Under the pieces are notes generated by a model. It saw only the letters and a list, made by a program, of their open reading frames with translations. It did no database searches and was not told the origin of the DNA. DNA of 64,000 bases from Escherichia coli (lineage in GTDB: Bacteria > Pseudomonadota > Gammaproteobacteria > Enterobacterales > Enterobacteriaceae), in NCBI RefSeq assembly GCF_003019035.1, contig NZ_CP027447.1; one strand, written 5' to 3'. Below are positions 1,762-36,982 of this stretch, piece by piece (the stretch's first letter is position 1; each line of letters starts with the position of its first letter). The position numbers were made by a program, and so were the translations under genes.

Positions 1762-2061
1762 ATGGTGACTGACATGAAGTGTAATCGTAAGCGCTGGTCA
1801 CGCGAAGACCGGGAATTTATCGAAGCCAACGTCGGAAAAATGACCGTTGAAGAAATGGCGGAAAAACTGAAAGTCGCCACAACCGCCCTCCGGGCACATG
1901 CCAGAAGGCACGGAATATCATTGTGTGTATACCGAATCAGTGAACACGACAAATATTTATGTCGTGAACTTTATAAAGAAGGACTGGATATTCATGTCAT
2001 TGCCCGAAAGATGGAATTAAGCAATCGAGCTGTATCCAGCATTGTATACAGCGGATATTAA
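1762..2061 (+). CDS. Hypothetical early protein, possible helix-turn-helix
   Basis: 99-aa ORF; start overlaps the upstream stop (ATGA-type coupling). Confidence 0.45.
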   Translation: MVTDMKCNRKRWSREDREFIEANVGKMTVEEMAEKLKVATTALRAHARRHGISLCVYRISEHDKYLCRELYKEGLDIHVIARKMELSNRAVSSIVYSGY

Positions 2062-2080
2062 TTAACAGGAGCTTTAATTT

Positions 2081-2605
2081 ATGGCTAAACCAGCAAAACG
2101 TATCAAAAGTGCCGCAGCGGCTTATGTGCCACAAAACCGCGATGCGGTGATTACCGATATTAAACGCATCGGGGATTTACAGCGCGAAGCATCACGTCTG
2201 GAAACGGAAATGAATGATGCCATCGCGGAAATTACGGAGAAATTTGCAGCCCGGATTGCACCGATTAAAACCGATATTGAAACCCTTTCAAAAGGTGTTC
2301 AGGGATGGTGTGAAGCGAACCGCGACGAACTGACAAACGGCGGCAAAGTGAAGACGGCGAATCTTGTCACCGGTGATGTATCGTGGCGGGTCCGTCCACC
2401 ATCAGTAAGTATTCGTGGTATGGATGCAGTGATGGAAACGCTGGAGCGTCTTGGCCTGCAACGCTTTATTCGCACGAAGCAGGAAATCAACAAGGAAGCG
2501 ATTTTACTAGAACCGAAAGCGGTCGCAGGTGTTGCCGGAATTACAGTTAAATCGGGAATTGAAGATTTTTCCATTATTCCGTTTGAACAGGAAGCCGGTA
2601 TTTAA
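2081..2605 (+). CDS. gam: Gam host-nuclease inhibitor / DNA end-binding protein
   Basis: 174-aa translation recognised as Mu Gam; position after the early ORF block matches Mu. Confidence 0.85.
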   Translation: MAKPAKRIKSAAAAYVPQNRDAVITDIKRIGDLQREASRLETEMNDAIAEITEKFAARIAPIKTDIETLSKGVQGWCEANRDELTNGGKVKTANLVTGDVSWRVRPPSVSIRGMDAVMETLERLGLQRFIRTKQEINKEAILLEPKAVAGVAGITVKSGIEDFSIIPFEQEAGI

Positions 2606-2703
2606 TACCACCATTAATATTTAATTAATTCACATTCTTTTAATTATGGCGCGATGCGTCAGGGGATTGCTCGCGCCTGAAACAGATTACTGAGGAATAA
2701 AAC

Positions 2704-3234
2704 ATGGTTGATGCAAAAATTCTGAATGGTGTCAGCACATTATTACGGGCTTACGGACGCCTGACCTGCGGAGTTCTGGCTGAAAAAATGAAGATGCCTC
2801 CCTCATCAATGGTGTATTTCCTGCGTGATGCGGTTGATGTCGGCGTTCTCACCGAATGCAACGGATTTTATGACGTTCCGCGCCCGCGTCCGACGCCGCC
2901 TGTAAGACGAAACGCAACTGAGCAGCCTGCTGTTGATGATGCGGTGTGGTGCAACTGGCGTCGCTCATTACCCTGGGTGGAAGGTAATACCATCCCCGCA
3001 CTGGCAAAAGAGTTTGCGACAGGCGTACTGACCTGTGAGTCCGTTCACATCGTTGCAGAAGTGGATGACGAGATGTGCAAACAGGGAATGCCACGTTTTG
3101 TGATGGCTTATATCGATATCCGGCTGGGGCGGTTTATTTGCAGTTCAAGCGCCTGGAATATCACCGACCATGTACTGCGTTATCTCATTCTTGATTGTTC
3201 TCCGGCTCCCGTAGCGGTGCAGGAGGTGGCGTGA
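2704..3234 (+). CDS. Hypothetical early protein
   Basis: 176-aa ORF, first of four coupled ORFs between gam and gemA. Confidence 0.5.
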   Translation: MVDAKILNGVSTLLRAYGRLTCGVLAEKMKMPPSSMVYFLRDAVDVGVLTECNGFYDVPRPRPTPPVRRNATEQPAVDDAVWCNWRRSLPWVEGNTIPALAKEFATGVLTCESVHIVAEVDDEMCKQGMPRFVMAYIDIRLGRFICSSSAWNITDHVLRYLILDCSPAPVAVQEVA

Positions 3235-3758
3235 TGTTTTTTAAAACGTCAAATCCCGCAGCACTGCTGGCGTGGGACCAGTTTATGGCGGACTGTCTGA
3301 AACTACGCGAAGAAGCCCGCCATCTTGATAAGGTTCTGGGTTGTGGTTGCCGGTCAGTATTCAGCACAGGTATTGGTGGGCGTTATTTTCATGGTGTGAA
3401 CTTTCCGGGGAATGAGCGCCCTTTCTCGCGGGAGCTGTGGACCGTACAACGGCCCGCATCAGGTAACAGTTGCAGGCCTAGAACTTCGCGGATACCTGTT
3501 CATCTCAGGGAGCAGGCAAAAGAGCTGGCGAAAATATGGCAGGAGAATATTCCGGTCACTTATGCCCGCACAGATGCTCTTTTACCCGCACTGGGACTGG
3601 ATTTCAGCGCAACAATATTCGGGCCGCTCCGGTGGTTCCGTGTTGGTGATGTGATTTACGTCATGACGGGGATGACACCCGCACAGGGCTGCATGACGGA
3701 AATCCTGTCCGATGAATTCATGAAGGCAAAGATTGCGTTAAAGGGGGCCGCTAAATGA
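3234..3758 (+). CDS. Hypothetical early protein
   Basis: ATG at 3234 overlaps the upstream stop (GTGATG); the six-frame ORF at 3195 is rejected as an upstream extension. Confidence 0.5.
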   Translation: MFFKTSNPAALLAWDQFMADCLKLREEARHLDKVLGCGCRSVFSTGIGGRYFHGVNFPGNERPFSRELWTVQRPASGNSCRPRTSRIPVHLREQAKELAKIWQENIPVTYARTDALLPALGLDFSATIFGPLRWFRVGDVIYVMTGMTPAQGCMTEILSDEFMKAKIALKGAAK

Positions 3759-4423
3759 AAGAACGTGGCGTTGCTTTTAATGACGATATGGTCAGGGCAA
3801 TTCTCGAAGGAAGAAAGACGCAAACACGCCGCCCGGTAAAAAATGTCGGACACGATAACTGTCTGGTTATCCATCGTAACGGTGTTTATACCCACGTTAT
3901 GGATGCACCTGAGCATGGTTTATGCCCGTTCGGTAACGTTGGTGATCGCATCTGGGTCCGTGAAGCGTGGGCAATATTAGGCAATGAGGATGGTTGCAGT
4001 GTGGACTGGAACGGCAACCTTTGTCATGGCGATGAGAAGAAGGCAGCAAGGATTTATCGGGCAAGTTGTGAACAAAAGCCTGGTGATTACGGTCTGTGGT
4101 CAATACCTGATGATGCTGACTGGAAACCTCGCACTGTGAATGAAAAGTTTGATGGCAGGTGGTGCCCATCTATCCACATGCCGCGCTGGGCGTCGCGCAT
4201 TCTGTTGGGAATAACCGACGTGCGTGTGGAACGGCTGCATGATATTAGCGAGGCAGATGCGAAAGCGGAAGGCGCATTTCCGGCGACGTACAAAATTACG
4301 CCACCGGAAGCTGTTTATCGCGTTGGTTTTGGTGATATCTGGCGCGGTATTTATGGGCAAGATAACTGGCTGTCTAATCCGTGGGTATGGGTAATTGAGT
4401 TTAAGCGTATTCAGGAAGCATAA
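3755..4423 (+). CDS. Early protein with N-terminal ASCH-like (PUA-fold) motif
   Basis: 222 aa; N-terminal motif MVRAILEGRKTQTRRP resembles the ASCH GxKTxTxR signature (compare E. coli YqfB); start overlaps upstream stop. Confidence 0.55.
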   Translation: MKERGVAFNDDMVRAILEGRKTQTRRPVKNVGHDNCLVIHRNGVYTHVMDAPEHGLCPFGNVGDRIWVREAWAILGNEDGCSVDWNGNLCHGDEKKAARIYRASCEQKPGDYGLWSIPDDADWKPRTVNEKFDGRWCPSIHMPRWASRILLGITDVRVERLHDISEADAKAEGAFPATYKITPPEAVYRVGFGDIWRGIYGQDNWLSNPWVWVIEFKRIQEA

Positions 4424-4425
4424 CT

Positions 4426-4767
4426 ATGAGCAAATCACTTAATGCACGTTGTATTCGCCGTTGGGAAGTCAGATTTAAGCCTGTTTGTGATTCAAAAGTT
4501 AGCCCTCACATGCGTAAAAGCTTTTTGCGTGGGGTGCGTGAATTAGGGCTTATTACGGCTGAAAACATGGTTGAAAGCATGGCTGAGAAAAACGCCAGGT
4601 TTGATTACGACGGCAAGGACACAGGCTGGTCACCGGAGTTTTCTAACTGGTATGCAACATGCCGAGAAAAGTATTGTAAAGAGGCCCGCGACTATCTGGA
4701 TGAAGAAGTCACAAACGATGAGATCGATGAAGAAATCAGAACTGAGCTAGAGTATTGGAATGACTAA
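4426..4767 (+). CDS. Hypothetical early protein with acidic C-terminus
   Basis: 113-aa ORF, coupled to neighbours. Confidence 0.5.
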   Translation: MSKSLNARCIRRWEVRFKPVCDSKVSPHMRKSFLRGVRELGLITAENMVESMAEKNARFDYDGKDTGWSPEFSNWYATCREKYCKEARDYLDEEVTNDEIDEEIRTELEYWND

Positions 4768-5392
4768 TCTGGCCGATATGACCGGAAAGTGTTTCAGCGA
4801 TACAAGCGGTGTGGTAGCACCGCTTTTTAAAGGTATGATCATGAGTCGCACATCCCTGATTAAATTAATCCATGTCGCCCGTCGTGATCTACAACTCGAC
4901 GACGATACTTACCGCGCTTTTCTGATGCAGAAAACGGGCAAAATCAGTTGCCGCGAGCTGACGGTAACGCAACTGGAACAGGTGCTCGATGCCATGAAAG
5001 AACGCGGCTTTAAGAAGCTGAATAAACATCCACGTCGCCGCTTTAAGGGGCATGTCACGCCCCGCGAGAAGGTATACAAAGTCTGGCAGCAGATGGCAGA
5101 AGACGGTTTTATTACCGATGGCGGTGATGTGGCGCTGGATAAATATGTTCAGCGCCTGACGGCGAAACGTAATGGCGGACAGGGTGTTTCCACGCTGGCG
5201 TGGTGTCATGGCGACACCCTGTTGATTGTTCTCGAAACTCTCAAGCAGTGGCATATCCGCTGTATTCGTGAAGCCTTTTCCCGTCACGGGCTTCCGTTGC
5301 CGGTCAGTCCGTCCGGGCGTGAACTGCGCGGCTATGATGCCATGACGGCGGCTTATGCCCATGCCAGAAAGACACGGAGGATGGCACAATGA
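4760..5392 (+). CDS. gemA: GemA-like early protein
   Basis: Position immediately upstream of mor as in Mu; true start may be the internal ATG at 4841 (MSRTSLIKL...). Confidence 0.65.
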   Translation: MTNLADMTGKCFSDTSGVVAPLFKGMIMSRTSLIKLIHVARRDLQLDDDTYRAFLMQKTGKISCRELTVTQLEQVLDAMKERGFKKLNKHPRRRFKGHVTPREKVYKVWQQMAEDGFITDGGDVALDKYVQRLTAKRNGGQGVSTLAWCHGDTLLIVLETLKQWHIRCIREAFSRHGLPLPVSPSGRELRGYDAMTAAYAHARKTRRMAQ

Positions 5393-5778
5393 CGGAAGAT
5401 TTATTTGGTGATTTGCAGGATGACACCATCCTGGCACATCTTGACAATCCCGCAGAGGATACGTCACGCTTTCCGGCACTGCTGGCGGAGCTGAACGATT
5501 TACTGCGCGGGGAATTGTCCCGGCTGGGTGTTGATCCTGCCCATTCACTGGAGATTGTAGTGGCTATCTGTAAGCATCTGGGCGGCGGTCAGGTCTACAT
5601 TCCACGCGGTCAGGTTCTGGACTCGCTGATTCGGGATTTGCGTATCTGGAATGATTTTAACGGTCGCAACGTCAGCGAACTGACCACCCGTTATGGTGTC
5701 ACTTTCAATACGGTTTACAAGGCCATTCGCCGGATGCGACGGCTGAAATACCGCCAGTACCAGCCCTCACTTCTGTAA
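5389..5778 (+). CDS. mor: Mor, middle operon transcriptional activator
   Basis: 129 aa; paralogous to the downstream C protein (shared C-terminal helix-turn-helix region); position matches Mu. Confidence 0.85.
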   Translation: MTEDLFGDLQDDTILAHLDNPAEDTSRFPALLAELNDLLRGELSRLGVDPAHSLEIVVAICKHLGGGQVYIPRGQVLDSLIRDLRIWNDFNGRNVSELTTRYGVTFNTVYKAIRRMRRLKYRQYQPSLL

Positions 5779-5783
5779 ACAGT

Positions 5784-5808
5784 AAAGCCGGTTAATCCGG
5801 CTTTTTTT
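5784..5808 (+). terminator. Rho-independent terminator after mor (end of early transcript)
   Basis: AAAGCCGG-TTAAT-CCGGC hairpin followed by TTTTTTT. Confidence 0.7.
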
Positions 5809-7230: not shown

Positions 7231-7600
7231 AAGTTTACTGCTGGCAGCCGTGTTTGCCGCCGTTCTGTCTGGGGTGTTGTGGCACAGGCTGGACAGCACC
7301 CGCCACGATAACCAGACGCTGCGCCGTGAATTACAGACGGAGCAACAGGCCCGCAACACGGCTGAATGGTTGTTACACAGTCAGGAACAGACGATGCAGG
7401 TATTTTCCGCTATCCGTGCCGCAAATCGTGCCGCGCGGCTGGCAGATGAGACAGAACATCATGATGCAAAACAAAAAATTACAACCGCCATTACCGGTGA
7501 CAATTGCAGCACTCGTCCTGTGCCTGCCGTTGCTGCTGACAGGTTGCGGGAACTCGAAAAACGCACCCGTGCCATCGGTGGTGATCCTGCCCGAAACTGA
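7214..7600 (+). CDS. Inner-membrane spanin subunit (Rz-like)
   Basis: 128 aa; N-terminal transmembrane helix then charged coiled-coil region; directly after lys. Confidence 0.6.
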   Translation: MTFASKSLLLAAVFAAVLSGVLWHRLDSTRHDNQTLRRELQTEQQARNTAEWLLHSQEQTMQVFSAIRAANRAARLADETEHHDAKQKITTAITGDNCSTRPVPAVAADRLRELEKRTRAIGGDPARN

Positions 7601-7802
7601 TGCAGAACTGACGGAAGCAACGCCCGTTCCGCCCATGCCACAGCCCCTGACGTGGGGAGCATCCCTTCTCTGGAATGCTGACCTGCTGATGGCGCTCGGG
7701 CAGTGCAACCGCGACAAGGCATCAGTCCGGGAACAGGAGACCCGGAGGAAAGAAATTTATGAACGAAGACCAGAACCGGGCGGTGGCGCTGCTGCTCGCT
7801 GA
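7461..7802 (+). CDS. Outer-membrane spanin lipoprotein (Rz1-like), overlapping the inner spanin in another frame
   Basis: Lipoprotein signal with lipobox LLLTGC; proline-rich mature part; ATGATG start at 7461. Confidence 0.5.
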   Translation: MMQNKKLQPPLPVTIAALVLCLPLLLTGCGNSKNAPVPSVVILPETDAELTEATPVPPMPQPLTWGASLLWNADLLMALGQCNRDKASVREQETRRKEIYERRPEPGGGAAAR

Positions 7803-7953
7803 ACTCTGGCAGGGGAATACCCGTGATATTCCCCGTCCGGCGGCGTATGACCCGCCTGTATTGTGTGCCGGTTGCGGTCGTGAGCTGCGGCCTGATGTGC
7901 TGAGACAGCAGCCAATGGCGAACTACTGCCACTGGTGCCGTGGAGCAGAATAA
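7759..7953 (+). CDS. Small zinc-finger protein (CxxC...CxxC)
   Basis: 64-aa ORF with CAGCG and CHWC motifs. Confidence 0.4.
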   Translation: MNEDQNRAVALLLAELWQGNTRDIPRPAAYDPPVLCAGCGRELRPDVLRQQPMANYCHWCRGAE

Positions 7954-8252
7954 TGGATTTGATTTCAGTTTTAGCGTTATGGCCTTACCTGTTGCCTGTT
8001 GTGGCCGGTGGGGCCGTCTGGGCGATGCGTCGTAGTTTTGCCAGCACCGAGCGTGTGGAGCGTCTTGAAAACCGGATGACCGAAATGGAAACCCGCTACG
8101 CCAGCATCCCTGGCACAGAAGATGTACACGAAATGCGCCTGCGTATTGCAGAGCTGTCCGGCGATATCCGGGTGCTGTCCCAGCGGGTGCAGTCATTTTC
8201 CCATCAACTGGAGCTGCTGCTTGAAAACGCAGTAAACCGGAGTAATTCATGA
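7953..8252 (+). CDS. Small membrane protein, possible lysis accessory protein
   Basis: ATG at 7953 overlaps the upstream stop (TAATG); N-terminal transmembrane segment then coiled coil. Confidence 0.5.
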   Translation: MDLISVLALWPYLLPVVAGGAVWAMRRSFASTERVERLENRMTEMETRYASIPGTEDVHEMRLRIAELSGDIRVLSQRVQSFSHQLELLLENAVNRSNS

Positions 8253-31048: not shown

Positions 31049-31102
31049 TGGCCGTTTCCGGCCTGCATGGCATGATTTGCGATTTTGGACGGGAGATTCA
31101 GC

Positions 31103-31684
31103 GTGCTGATTGGCTATGTAAGGGTATCAACAAATGACCAGAATACAGACCTGCAACGAAACGCTCTTGTTTGTGCAGGATGTGAACAAATATTTGAAGA
31201 TAAATTAAGCGGAACAAGGACAGACAGACCTGGATTAAAGCGCGCTTTAAAGCGTCTTCAAAAAGGTGACACACTGGTTGTCTGGAAACTGGATCGCCTC
31301 GGGCGAAGCATGAAACATCTGATTTCTCTCGTCGGAGAACTACGGGAGCGAGGGATTAATTTTCGCAGCCTTACTGACAGTATTGATACGTCATCCCCAA
31401 TGGGGCGTTTTTTCTTCCACGTTATGGGTGCCCTGGCTGAAATGGAACGAGAACTAATCATCGAGCGAACGATGGCTGGACTTGCTGCCGCCAGAAATAA
31501 AGGCCGTATTGGTGGGCGACCACCTAAACTAACCAAAGCGGAATGGGAGCAGGCCGGGCGTTTATTAGCACAAGGAATCCCCCGCAAGCAGGTTGCATTG
31601 ATCTACGATGTGGCCCTGTCAACTCTGTATAAAAAACACCCCGCGAAACGAGCGCATATAGAAAACGACGATCGAATCAATTAA
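31103..31684 (+). CDS. gin: Gin serine DNA invertase
   Basis: Probable GTG start at 31103 (VLIGYVRVSTNDQNTDLQ...), 193 aa; serine recombinase resolvase/invertase family. Confidence 0.9.
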   Translation: MLIGYVRVSTNDQNTDLQRNALVCAGCEQIFEDKLSGTRTDRPGLKRALKRLQKGDTLVVWKLDRLGRSMKHLISLVGELRERGINFRSLTDSIDTSSPMGRFFFHVMGALAEMERELIIERTMAGLAAARNKGRIGGRPPKLTKAEWEQAGRLLAQGIPRKQVALIYDVALSTLYKKHPAKRAHIENDDRIN

Positions 31685-31778: not shown

Positions 31779-31967
31779 ATGAAATCAATTCGCTGTAAAA
31801 ACTGCAACAAACTGTTATTTAAGGCGGATTCCTTTGATCACATTGAAATCAGGTGTCCGCGTTGCAAACGTCACATCATAATGCTGAATGCCTGCGAGCA
31901 TCCCACGGAGAAACATTGTGGGAAAAGAGAAAAAATCACGCATTCTGACGAAACCGTGCGTTATTGA
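31779..31967 (+). CDS. com: Com, zinc-finger translational activator of mom
   Basis: 62 aa with CxxC...CxxC; overlaps the mom reading frame. Confidence 0.85.
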
Positions 31968-32634
31968 GTATGAAGGCCAGATTGTTGGCTATGGTTCAAA
32001 GGAGCTGCGCGTTGAAACCATATCCTGCTGGCTGGCCCGCACAATTATTCAGACAAAGCACTATTCCCGCCGTTTTGTGAATAACTCTTACCTCCACCTG
32101 GGAGTGTTCAGCGGACGCGATCTGGTTGGCGTTCTCCAGTGGGGATATGCCCTTAACCCCAACTCAGGTCGTCGTGTCGTGCTTGAAACGGATAACCGGG
32201 GCTATATGGAGTTGAATCGCATGTGGCTACACGACGACATGCCCCGCAACTCTGAATCACGGGCCATCAGCTACGCGCTGAAAGTTATCAGATTACTGTA
32301 TCCGTCAGTGGAGTGGGTTCAGTCCTTTGCTGACGAACGCTGCGGACGCGCAGGCGTTGTGTATCAGGCGTCGAATTTTGATTTTATTGGCAGCCATGAA
32401 AGCACGTTCTACGAGCTGGATGGTGAGTGGTATCACGAGATAACGATGAACGCAATTAAGCGCGGTGGACAACGAGGCGTGTATTTACGGGCTAATAAAG
32501 AGCGTGCCGTGGTGCACAAATTTAATCAGTATCGCTACATCAGGTTCCTGAACAAGCGAGCAAGGAAGCGACTAAATACTAATCTATTCAGGATCCAACC
32601 ATATCCAAAATCAACTCTGACTAGTATCAAATAA
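31888..32634 (+). CDS. mom: Mom DNA modification protein (anti-restriction adenine modification)
   Basis: 248-aa ORF from first in-frame ATG, overlapping com; real start uncertain. Confidence 0.8.
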
Positions 32635-33719: not shown

Positions 33720-34301
33720 TTAACTGGCGTGCTGTGTGCCAGGGGATATAAAACAGGTGAATTGATCAGCGAGTAGTGGGTAACTCGCTGCCTGGGGTAA
33801 TTCGAAGTGCCACCATTCGCTCGGGATACCGACAAAGCCACCGCCAGTCATAATCGCATTCAGCAACAGCCGATTGCGCTGAGCGGCTGGCGGGACGGAA
33901 GGGTGATAAGCATGGGAACGTTCGTGCATTTCATCGAACTCTGCACCCATATCCAGTATGTTCCCGTGCTCATCACGAAGCGTCAGGTCGATCGCTGTGC
34001 CACGGCTGTGATTAGAACCGACCGCCACATCAACAACATATTGCGGGTCTGGGCAGGCTTGCCACAACATCGCCTGTGCTTGTTGTGGGCGATACGCATC
34101 GTAAATCACCAGTTGTAAGCCTGACAGCTGGGCGATACTGATACTTTTCGCCAGCGCAGTAATCGCATCCTTGTGTAACAGACAACGCGCTTGCTGATAA
34201 ATAGCTTTGCCTGTGATGTTATCAGCACAGGCGTATTTCAATTCGATCTCCAGATCAGGGAAGATCACGGCTAAATCAACCAGTTCGGTGGTATCCGACA
34301 T
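33720..34301 (-). CDS. ddpX: D-Ala-D-Ala dipeptidase
   Basis: 193 aa, VanX-like. Confidence 0.9.
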   Translation of the reverse strand: MSDTTELVDLAVIFPDLEIELKYACADNITGKAIYQQARCLLHKDAITALAKSISIAQLSGLQLVIYDAYRPQQAQAMLWQACPDPQYVVDVAVGSNHSRGTAIDLTLRDEHGNILDMGAEFDEMHERSHAYHPSVPPAAQRNRLLLNAIMTGGGFVGIPSEWWHFELPQAASYPLLADQFTCFISPGTQHAS

Positions 34302-34558
34302 AAACGGTTCCTGTATAAGACAAAAATTGCTGCGCTTTCCGCTTATGCAGATCTCATGCCACGCCGGGATAAGCGCCAGAATGCTGGCTTAAAGTTATAT
34401 TTTTTAACTTTTGATCAACATTTGTGCATCGTAATGCAGTTTTGGTGCAAGAGGGGAAGTTAAGGAAGGAATCTCCCGGAATCGTAGCTGAAATCACAGT
34501 ATTTAAGTGACAGTGTCACGTTAAAGGAAAACCCGCGAGTGCGGGCGAGAGGAATTTG

Positions 34559-36958
34559 TCAGATTTTCAGCGGTAACACGCTGCTCATCCAGCCTGGAAT
34601 TTCTTCGGCGGGCAGGGGGCGGGAAAAGAAATATCCCTGAATAACGCGACAGTGGATCTTGCGTAGCATCTCAAATTGCTCTTTGGTTTCGACGCCTTCC
34701 GCCACGACGGTTAAATTAAGGCTTTGCCCAATGCTGGTAATGGCTTCAAGTAAGGCAAGGATGCGTTTTTCGGTCAGACAACGATCGACAAAACTTTTGT
34801 CAATTTTGATTTCCGTTACTGGAAGACTGACTAAGCGGGATAATCCGGAAAAGCCCGTGCCAAAATCATCTACCGATAAACCCACGCCCATATCGCGCAG
34901 GATCTGAATGCGTTTAAAGATTTCGGTATCGTGTTCCATCATCATGCTTTCCGTGATTTCCACCGTCAGCTGGTGGCCGTTAATACCCCAGGCTTGCATT
35001 GCATCAGACACCTGATTAGGCAGCTGATTACTGCGAAAGTGCAGCGCCGACAAGTTCACGGATAACGCCGGGATATGAATATTCTGGCTACGCCATTCTG
35101 CTAACTGACGGCAAGCTTCCGCGATGACCCAGCGTCCAATATTTTCGATTTCACCGATCTCTTCTGCGAGAGGAATAAACCGTGAAGGGGGCACATGACC
35201 ATGCAGGGGATCGTGCCAGCGAGCAAGGGCTTCGATGCCGTACAGTTCACCCGTTTCTGCGAAGATTTGTGGCTGGTAAACCAGTTTCAGTTGGTTATTG
35301 CTAATTGCTTCTTTCAGCGCCGCGCCTAAAACCAAACGCTCTTTTACCATTTCGTTCATCGCCGGGCTGAAGAACTGCCAGCCGTTACCGCCATTTTTGC
35401 GAATAAAATCCATTGCATTGTGAGCAGTGGAGAGCAGGTAATCGCGGTTTTTACCCACGTCGTAGCTGATGCCAATGCTCAAGGTGAGCGGGAATGGTTT
35501 ATCGTCAATCATTATCGGCTTGCTGACCACATTCCGTAGCTCATCGGCGATCTGCGTAATGTTACTGACGTCGTTTTCCAGGCTCACGAGGACAAACTGC
35601 GTACCTTCGATACGACAGAGATATTGATCCGGTTTGAGTTTTTCACGAAAGCGATTGACCACTTCCAGCAATGCCTGATCGGCCCACGCATAGCCAAGGC
35701 TATCAATCACATCCTGAATATGGTCAACACCGATGAGATACACCACCGGAGAGACGGCTTTGTCGACCAGGTCATCGAGGTAATTGTGCAGGTTATTGCG
35801 ATTTGGCAGACCGGTCATCGGATCAAATTGGATGAGTTGTTCAATATGCTGACGGCTTTTTTCCTGTTCCAGCGCCAGCGCGGCCATATGCTGGCTAATA
35901 TCTGCCACGCGTTCGATAAAGGCGCTGGTTTCTGCTCCTGACGAGGTTTTAATTTGCAGGATCCCCGCCGGCGCACCATCACGCTGACGAATGGTCGCTG
36001 ACCAGCTTTGCGCATTTTGAACTTCTGCACCGTGCGAAGATGACGCCCAGTGTATCGGCATCCCGTTGCGCAGCGCGAACAGCGAAACATGCGATTCGTT
36101 GAGTACAGATTCGATGTTACGACAAATGATTTCCCCCATTTCATGAAATGGCGGGCTGCTGCACATGGCGGCGAGAATATTGCCTTCAAGCTGGCGGATT
36201 TGCCGTTCTTCGGTGATATCCGAGAAGGTCATTACCAGGTTCTGCAGATGCGCGAGCACGTCATAAACCGGGCTGATAGAGGCTTTAATCCAGATTTTTT
36301 CACCGGTGCGCGTCAACAGCAGAAATTCATCCTGATCGCGGGCGGTTTTCCATAGCAACTGTTGTAAACGAATGCGGTTATCGGCAGGGAATTCAGGAAT
36401 GTTCAGGAGTGTATCGGGCTGCATACCGCTGGCTTCGCTAATGCAGTAACCAAACATTTCGGTAAATGCGCGATTGCACTGCACAATATGGCGTTCCGGA
36501 TCGAGGACAATCACCGGTCGGTCGAGATGGTCAACAGCAATAATCAATTGTCGGGTCTGTTCTTTTTGCGCCATTTCTACGCTGGCATCCCGTACCAGCG
36601 CCAGGTAATAAACTTTCCCCTCGGCGCTCACTTTCGATAGCGCAAAACGGGTCCAGATTTTACTGCCGTCTTTTTTCTCCAGCTGCAGCTCCCGACTCAT
36701 CCCCTCGACGCGCGCTTTACCGCCTTCACGGTTATGACGAATGTATTCAGGATGCGCAGGACGCAAATCCCGCGGAATCAGCATATCAATGTTATTGCCA
36801 ATGACTTCTTCACGTTTGTACCCCCAGAGCTTCTCTGCGGCGGGGTTGAAAAACATCACTTCATCATTTTCGTTAATTAACACCGCGCCCATCATATTTT
36901 GCTCAAGGGCGGGGAAAAAAATGCCATCGGCGGCATTATCCGCATCGGTTAGCTTCAT
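34559..36958 (-). CDS. dosP: Oxygen-sensing c-di-GMP phosphodiesterase (haem-PAS, GGDEF, EAL)
   Basis: 799 aa from MKLTDADN...; EAL-domain signature in the C-terminal part. Confidence 0.9.
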   Translation of the reverse strand: MKLTDADNAADGIFFPALEQNMMGAVLINENDEVMFFNPAAEKLWGYKREEVIGNNIDMLIPRDLRPAHPEYIRHNREGGKARVEGMSRELQLEKKDGSKIWTRFALSKVSAEGKVYYLALVRDASVEMAQKEQTRQLIIAVDHLDRPVIVLDPERHIVQCNRAFTEMFGYCISEASGMQPDTLLNIPEFPADNRIRLQQLLWKTARDQDEFLLLTRTGEKIWIKASISPVYDVLAHLQNLVMTFSDITEERQIRQLEGNILAAMCSSPPFHEMGEIICRNIESVLNESHVSLFALRNGMPIHWASSSHGAEVQNAQSWSATIRQRDGAPAGILQIKTSSGAETSAFIERVADISQHMAALALEQEKSRQHIEQLIQFDPMTGLPNRNNLHNYLDDLVDKAVSPVVYLIGVDHIQDVIDSLGYAWADQALLEVVNRFREKLKPDQYLCRIEGTQFVLVSLENDVSNITQIADELRNVVSKPIMIDDKPFPLTLSIGISYDVGKNRDYLLSTAHNAMDFIRKNGGNGWQFFSPAMNEMVKERLVLGAALKEAISNNQLKLVYQPQIFAETGELYGIEALARWHDPLHGHVPPSRFIPLAEEIGEIENIGRWVIAEACRQLAEWRSQNIHIPALSVNLSALHFRSNQLPNQVSDAMQAWGINGHQLTVEITESMMMEHDTEIFKRIQILRDMGVGLSVDDFGTGFSGLSRLVSLPVTEIKIDKSFVDRCLTEKRILALLEAITSIGQSLNLTVVAEGVETKEQFEMLRKIHCRVIQGYFFSRPLPAEEIPGWMSSVLPLKI

Positions 36959-36982
36959 AATTACCTCTGCATCCTGACGCAT

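Follow-up and report, generated by a model that had tools for sequence, protein, structure and literature searches.

The gene at positions 3755–4423 (plus strand) of the 64,000-nucleotide (nt) window analyzed here, a stretch of Escherichia coli DNA (RefSeq assembly GCF_003019035.1, contig NZ_CP027447.1) that begins in the interior of a Mu-like prophage, is predicted with moderate confidence to encode an early accessory N-acyl-nucleobase amidohydrolase of the YqfB type, with N4-acetylcytidine (ac4C) as the leading substrate candidate by analogy. The open reading frame (ORF) exists exactly as an earlier reading of the DNA made without database searches, here called the sequence-only reading, had given it, and its product of 222 amino acids (aa) is labeled a hypothetical protein in RefSeq (WP_001621843.1). 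That reading proposed an ASCH-like (PUA) fold with a nucleic-acid-binding role. The fold is borne out by structure prediction, which retrieves only ASCH proteins as strong matches; the description as a binder falls short, since conservation of the catalytic residues of YqfB predicts an enzyme and not only a binder.

Structure prediction was carried out with AlphaFold2 (AF2). The first model, built on 38 close homologues, had a predicted local distance difference test (pLDDT) score of 65 and was poor in residues 72–146, and a Foldseek search of the PDB with this model returned only ASCH structures at the top (YqfB, EF3133, 3s9x, ZmASCH and PH0355). It was replaced by a second model based on an alignment of 84 sequences, to which diverse homologues from viral contigs had been added, with a pLDDT of 85 and a predicted template modeling score of 0.79. 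This predicted model features a β-barrel flanked by helices, which can be superposed on the ASCH domains of known structure, and every strong structural match in the PDB is an ASCH protein, with YqfB as the best. The model supports an ASCH (PUA-like) fold for the protein, which shares its β-barrel/α architecture and octapeptide with the members of the ASCH superfamily PF04266 (TRIP4/ASC-1, EOLA1, ZmASCH and TthASCH). YqfB itself, the N4-acetylcytidine amidohydrolase of E. coli (PDB 1te7, 9kyf–9kyh), has 103 aa compared with the 222 of the window protein, which is longer because of two insertions (residues 28–60 and 71–137). The features of the coding sequence (CDS) are as follows.

3755–4423, plus strand: CDS of the 222-aa PmgT-like ASCH-fold protein.
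3809–3832, plus strand: octapeptide GRKTQTRR (G19–R26) of the YqfB "GKTR" type, with K21 as predicted base, T24 as predicted nucleophile and R26 as predicted oxyanion hole (hhalign register).
3836–3934, plus strand: insertion 1, residues 28–60, between strands β2 and β3, 22–58 aa long in the family (alignment and model secondary structure).
3947–3964, plus strand: strand β3, RIWVRE, with the family-specific residues R69 (144/150) and E70 (150/150).
3965–4165, plus strand: insertion 2, residues 71–137, a small β-rich subdomain of 27–67 aa in homologues with the hairpin Y101-R-A103 as conserved core (alignment and model).
4166–4186, plus strand: signature loop PSIHMPR, residues 138–144, followed by R148 (P138 146/150, M142 148/150, P143 149/150, R144 149/150, R148 150/150).
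4208–4210, plus strand: codon GGA (G152), an allele-specific change from the family consensus Glu (GAA), which is present in 143/150 representatives.
4256–4273, plus strand: helix DAKAEG, residues 168–173, with E172 on the YqfB acid E74 and D168 on YqfB H70 (hhalign of the core and C-terminal part).
4382–4408, plus strand: C-terminal strand WVWVIEFKR, equivalent to FYVIEFKCL of YqfB, with W210, W212 and F216 invariant or nearly so (hhalign and conservation).

The assignment to the YqfB type is carried by the agreement of these residues with those of the characterized enzyme. Lys21 of YqfB has been proposed as the base, Thr24 as the nucleophile, Glu74 as the acid and Arg26 as the oxyanion hole; the K21A, T24A and R26A changes abolish activity, E74A lowers the rate 100- to 1000-fold and the T24S enzyme still works (PMC6972931). 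Alignment with hhalign places residues 6–31 of the window protein in register with residues 6–31 of YqfB, so that F8, G19, K21, T24 and R26 fall on the same-numbered YqfB residues, and the stretch G19-R-K21-T-Q-T24-R-R26 after helix 1 follows the octapeptide pattern G-x-K-x-x-[E/T/S]-x-R. The motif that the sequence-only reading had picked out, MVRAILEGRKTQTRRP, is indeed encoded in the ORF (nt 3788–3835), though at residues 12–27 and not at the very N-terminus. With insertion 2 removed, hhalign pairs ILLGITDVRVERLHDISEADAKAEG with the YqfB stretch that sets E172 on E74 and D168 on H70, followed by IWRGIYG against VIADIYP, in which Y200 falls on Y89, and VWVIEFKRI against FYVIEFKCL. Conservation was counted over 150 family representatives that are 38–59% identical to the query. 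G19 (147/150), K21 (150/150), T24 (147/150), R25 (150/150), R26 (149/150) and the predicted acid E172 (150/150) are nearly or fully invariant, and by this alignment the putative catalytic set K21, T24 and E172 together with R26 is at least 98% conserved at each position. The family also carries invariant or nearly invariant residues that set it apart from YqfB, namely E70 and R148 (both 150/150), R144 (149/150), E159 (146/150) and H141 (138/150), so that the PSxHMPR loop, E70, R148 and E159 are additions to the YqfB set.

In the proposed mechanism, a modified base would be held in the barrel pocket and the N-acyl (amide) bond on the base would be hydrolyzed. Thr24 would be the nucleophile and Lys21 the base, while Glu172 would serve as the acid and Arg26 would form the oxyanion hole. 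By analogy the leading candidate substrate would be N4-acetylcytosine, in free ac4C or in the ac4C34 residue of elongator tRNA-Met. The two family-specific insertions and the invariant PSxHMPR/R148/E70 cluster may shape the pocket for a substrate that is larger or of another kind, perhaps a polymer. The enzyme would be made early without being needed for basic growth, and the phage could benefit, for example, from remodeled host RNA or nucleotide marks during lytic growth. In a 2026 preprint all 19 ASCH proteins assayed (19/19) deacetylated tRNA ac4C in vitro, no phage protein being among the 19. The same preprint, which is also the source of the octapeptide pattern, records the GKTR (YqfB-type) group in bacteria, archaea and some eukaryotes, with viruses listed for the GKER group alone; most ASCH proteins, the viral ones of the preprint included, are of the GKER type, whereas the family of the window protein is GKTR. 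YqfB also differs in being a chromosomal housekeeping gene, while the window gene is a phage-borne early gene.

Several observations weigh against the YqfB-type reading or against ac4C as its substrate. In the comparison of hidden Markov models, one of the checks proposed by the sequence-only reading, the window protein has no match in Pfam at E ≤ 1, ASCH (PF04266) included, and the best family representative (P0141) scores 17.7 bits against the ASCH model, below the gathering threshold of 21.2. The hhalign probability against the single YqfB sequence is low (12–53%). Asp27, His70 and Tyr89 are also 100% conserved in YqfB-like proteins (PMC6972931), but D27 and H70 are replaced by P27 and D168 in the window protein, D168 being itself a conserved Asp in the family, and Y89 is matched by Y200 only in the clade of the window protein (in the wider family, Asn is found in 91/150 and Tyr in 45/150). 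The protein is near neutral (isoelectric point [pI] 6.4) and not strongly basic. The window copy also carries G152 at a position where Glu is present in 143/150 representatives and in 114/115 close clusters carrying the motif, approximately 95% of the family; the change is a single A-to-G transition (GAA to GGA) common to the window allele and Escherichia phage PhiR68_1, and it could alter the activity of this copy. YqfB E54, which aligns with position 152, is not among the residues listed as 100% conserved (PMC6972931).

With regard to the substrate, the extra invariant residues suggest a modified or larger one, which makes ac4C less likely as a general substrate. The hosts of phages bearing the family include Pseudomonas, Vibrio, Burkholderia, Myxococcus (Mx8 p14), Salinibacter, Microcystis, Flavobacterium and Akkermansia. 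TmcA, which writes ac4C34, is not known to be general in Salinibacter, Myxococcus, Microcystis, Flavobacterium and Akkermansia, and since the family reaches phages of such hosts, ac4C is perhaps not the common substrate.

An internal duplication was rejected. A phmmer comparison with PDB sequences aligned residues 128–158 (WCPSIHMPRWASRILLGITDVRVE) to the N-terminal β1/helix/octapeptide region of TRIP4 ASCH (E = 0.012), but the match is at best fortuitous because residues 150–160 form strand β4 in the model and the family consensus is Glu and not an octapeptide-like Gly.

The window protein belongs to PHROG 874, a family of unknown function (phrog_874, E = 3.9e-86, residues 1–221). A word-indexed search found more than 8000 homologous clusters at 90% identity (best E = 2.5e-155), and exhaustive searching with a profile extended this to 54,813 50%-identity cluster representatives at E ≤ 1e-3, of which 27,624 reach E ≤ 1e-30; homologous clusters of this number place the ORF far beyond chance. 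The names of the more than 8000 clusters are mostly "hypothetical"; "ASCH domain-containing protein" and "morphogenetic protein" each occur a few times, the latter name going back to phage P1. The PmgT-like family does not have its own Pfam model, the NCBIfam search with the window protein gave no significant match, and neither did a search of the PDB with a profile from the family alignment.

The best-known homologue is PmgT of phage P1 (P1_gp095), which exhibits 65% identity to the window protein by BLASTP (E = 3e-98). P1 pmgT is likewise an early accessory gene, with the C1 operator Op88 and sigma-70 promoters ahead of it and so under repressor control, and it is labeled with a "putative morphogenetic function" without evidence. 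A genome-wide CRISPR interference (CRISPRi) screen and the earlier work cited there found it to be non-essential and dispensable for plaque formation, and it sits in a hypervariable region of P1-like plasmids where it is replaceable without loss of lysogeny (P1-like plasmid JL22). The neighbors differ between the two elements: P1 pmgT has pap upstream and pmgU and pmgV downstream, while the window gene is followed by ORF113, which is unrelated to PmgU. The reference P1 PmgT (L005:2989-3918) is 309 aa long, is unlike all homologues past NPWV and overlaps pmgU; the P1-like plasmids encode a 242-aa PmgT with a normal VIEFKR end. As the reference diverges after NPWV while the plasmid copies end normally, its gene looks frameshifted at the 3′ end. 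In phage vB_EcoM-Ro157c2YLVW, pmgT is broken up into two ORFs (L004 3994-4714). Directly upstream of pmgT, P1-like elements encode the Pap family, named as an "acid phosphatase" in P1 (L012:5288-5791; L005:2288-2794). This family matches the Pfam polynucleotide kinase phosphatase domain HAD_PNKP with 44 bits (cut-off 27.6), a hint that it may heal nucleic-acid ends and not act as a generic acid phosphatase.

Within the prophage, the genes at the start of the window are the 3′ part of B, gam (2081–2605), gp11 (2704–3234), gp12 (3234–3758), the ASCH gene (3755–4423), ORF113 (4426–4767), gemA, mor, C and lys. Region 2000–5800 is 97.3% identical across its full length to Escherichia phage PhiR68_1, and its match to Mu, D108 and SfMu spans only about 71%. 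The elements surrounding the ASCH gene are as follows.

3722–4799, plus strand: 1078-bp cassette of the ASCH gene and ORF113 in place of Mu 7442–8187 (blastn breakpoints against Mu NC_000929).
3741–3747, plus strand: Shine-Dalgarno sequence AAGGGGG, 7 nt 5′ of the ATG of the ASCH gene (direct sequence reading).
4426–4767, plus strand: ORF113, 113 aa, acidic (pI 5.0), PHROG 6675 (function unknown), a cassette partner in some enterobacterial phages only.
5784–5804, plus strand: intrinsic terminator 3′ of mor, at which the early transcript ends (stem of 8 pairs with a T-run behind it).

The ATG of the ASCH gene overlaps the gp12 stop codon as ATGA (3755–3758), and ORF113 starts 2 nt past the stop of the ASCH gene. 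No strong promoter or terminator interrupts the plus strand up to the hairpin and T-run at 5784–5804, so the ASCH gene belongs to the Mu-type early transcript. This agrees with the early-operon location given by the sequence-only reading, and its four coupled genes between gam and gemA (gp11, gp12, the ASCH gene and ORF113) are broadly right. Coupling of ORF113 into gemA is not established, because gemA starts at 4841 in both RefSeq and Mu, 73 nt beyond ORF113. The longest gemA ORF (4760–5392, 210 aa) overlaps ORF113, and the start equivalent to that of Mu and RefSeq gives 183 aa; the extra 27 codons, which lie in or beside the cassette junction at approximately 4800, are probably not translated.

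The cassette is mobile. It displaces the 3′ end of gp12, gp13, gp14 and the antisense gp15 of Mu (7442–8187), canonical Mu being without the ASCH gene, and positions 3755–4765 exhibit 81.5% DNA identity to part of Yersinia phage vB_YpM_41, an unrelated phage of 49 kb. With a GC content of 0.496 (ASCH gene) and 0.442 (ORF113), both cassette genes lie below the flanking genes (0.526). The chromosome of E. coli strain S6 matches the cassette at 100% identity. A near match is found in 241 of 5426 complete E. coli genomes, mostly in P1-like plasmids (approximately 90–100 kb) and plasmids of approximately 48–50 kb, and at least 80% of the cassette is present in only 14. Comparison of Mu, SfMu and Yersinia phage vB_YpM_3 identifies the gp12–gemA interval (window 3234–4841) as a variable accessory slot of Muvirus genomes, which is filled by gp13/gp14/gp15 in Mu, by an extra gene and a 0.5-kb unannotated gap in SfMu, and by three small genes in vB_YpM_3. 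The sequence-only reading had drawn on the proximity of the ASCH gene to the nuclease inhibitor gam; since the slot content varies among Mu-like phages, this proximity is weak evidence of a functional link.

The context of the family was sampled in 85 loci, consisting of 80 viral contigs, the window and annotated phages. The flanking genes are largely encoded on the same strand as the ASCH gene (274/331). The typical site is the early accessory region of lambdoid prophages, with a CI-like repressor approximately 4 kb upstream and an integrase approximately 1 kb downstream; in this layout RecT, RecE or YqaJ is encoded immediately 5′ of the ASCH gene, and Ead/Ea22, DUF4060, TraR-like and excisionase genes are found nearby. 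The "ea" region of lambda and P22 and the semi-essential early region of Mu offer a like slot, which is non-essential, mosaic, early-transcribed and located downstream of recombination or Gam functions. The likeness between their accessory genes and the window gene is one of position and not of homology, most being unrelated in sequence. A conserved partner gene was not found in the 85 loci, only positional neighbors (RecT/RecE/YqaJ, integrase, Ead/Ea22, DUF4060, TraR-like proteins and methyltransferases), and a search for domain fusions of the family protein found none. ORF113 adjoins the ASCH gene in 11/85 loci only and is therefore not an obligate partner. It accompanies the ASCH gene in enterobacterial lambdoid phages such as Klebsiella RothC/D and Yersinia vB_YpM_41/44, with remoter homologues in Hafnia and Listeria phages. 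ORF113 was rejected as a homologue of PmgU (E = 1.6).

At the right end of the prophage, the Gin invertase (31085–31684) and Mom (31888–32634; Pfam Mom, E = 2.8e-75) are followed by host genes (33720–36982) for a ddpX-like D-Ala-D-Ala dipeptidase and a dosP-like PAS-GGDEF-EAL protein, which places the end of the prophage at approximately 32.7–33.7 kb. A link between Mom and the ASCH gene was rejected, as canonical Mu has mom without the ASCH gene and P1 and lambdoid phages have the ASCH gene without mom.

Other functions can be weighed against the amidohydrolase. The protein might be a non-catalytic reader that, like YTH, EVE and SRA domains, only binds a modified base in RNA or DNA, such as N6-methyladenine (m6A), and thereby regulates or shields, perhaps in concert with phage adenine methyltransferases. 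Readers of modified bases predominate in the PUA-like superfamily, and two unrelated adenine methyltransferase families are encoded no more than a few genes away from the ASCH gene, MT-A70 in 15/85 loci (for example L048:4324-5016) and Dam (PF05869) in 10/85 (for example L050:3699-4247), in agreement with the ASCH–methyltransferase operon association previously noted by Iyer and colleagues (PMC4738411). This association could be positional only, as the methyltransferases and the ASCH gene occupy the same accessory region, and most loci, including the window, do not have a methyltransferase nearby. A pure reader would not be expected to keep exactly the catalytic Lys, Thr, Arg and Glu of YqfB nearly invariant in very divergent members, and we consider this function fairly unlikely. 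Other chemistry known from the ASCH fold is very unlikely: a single-stranded RNA nuclease of the ZmASCH kind, or a DNA glycosylase that excises bases as the ASCH-like defense protein BapA does, would share the fold, yet ZmASCH belongs to the GKER octapeptide group while the window protein is of the GKTR type, BapA has two barrels with its catalytic Asp in a different loop, and YqfB is the best structural match.

The location of the gene bears on the two remaining alternatives. The sequence-only reading had taken a host-takeover or anti-defense function to be plausible. An anti-defense factor, which would destroy or sequester a nucleotide-derived immune signal or remove a base mark used by a modification-dependent nuclease or an anticodon nuclease, would suit an early-expressed, non-essential and mobile cassette in the variable slot of Mu-like phages, as it would the "ea" region between the recombination genes and integrase of lambdoid phages and the hypervariable region of P1, and PUA/ASCH domains do serve as sensors in defense systems. 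However, the window protein has no PADLOC match at E ≤ 1, the literature search found no anti-defense report for ASCH or PmgT proteins, and no defense-related partner gene is conserved nearby in the 85 loci; this role is unlikely, slightly more so than that of a reader. A virion morphogenesis protein, as the P1 PmgT name and some UniRef names would have it, is supported solely by inherited annotation and is extremely improbable given a gene in the early operon of the Mu-like phage and behind a C1-repressed early promoter in P1, the non-essential and replaceable nature of P1 pmgT (CRISPRi, earlier work and JL22) and a predicted fold that is that of a small nucleoside or nucleic-acid enzyme.

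The fold label in itself is not new, as some database records already name homologues ASCH-domain proteins, and ASCH proteins were shown between 2020 and 2026 to be ac4C amidohydrolases and tRNA ac4C erasers. What appears to be unreported is that the PmgT-like family is a YqfB-type (GKTR) variant of ASCH which has kept the catalytic residues and has two insertions and an added invariant motif. A doubtful extension of the amidohydrolase reading is that PmgT-like proteins are phage-encoded base-modification erasers, which would strip an N-acyl mark from host tRNA or another nucleic acid shortly after the phage infects or is induced. In enterobacteria this mark would be ac4C34 of tRNA-Met, and elsewhere a different amide-linked one; its removal would reprogram decoding or blind a host nuclease that recognizes it. 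If true, the host epitranscriptome would be the route of a counter-defense or takeover strategy. With approximately 55,000 clusters at 50% identity, the family is very large, and it is found in P1, Mu-like and lambdoid phages as well as in phages of several other bacterial phyla. If the predicted enzyme is active, a common dark-matter phage gene would gain a function, and temperate phages would be shown to carry an early enzyme for editing base modifications.
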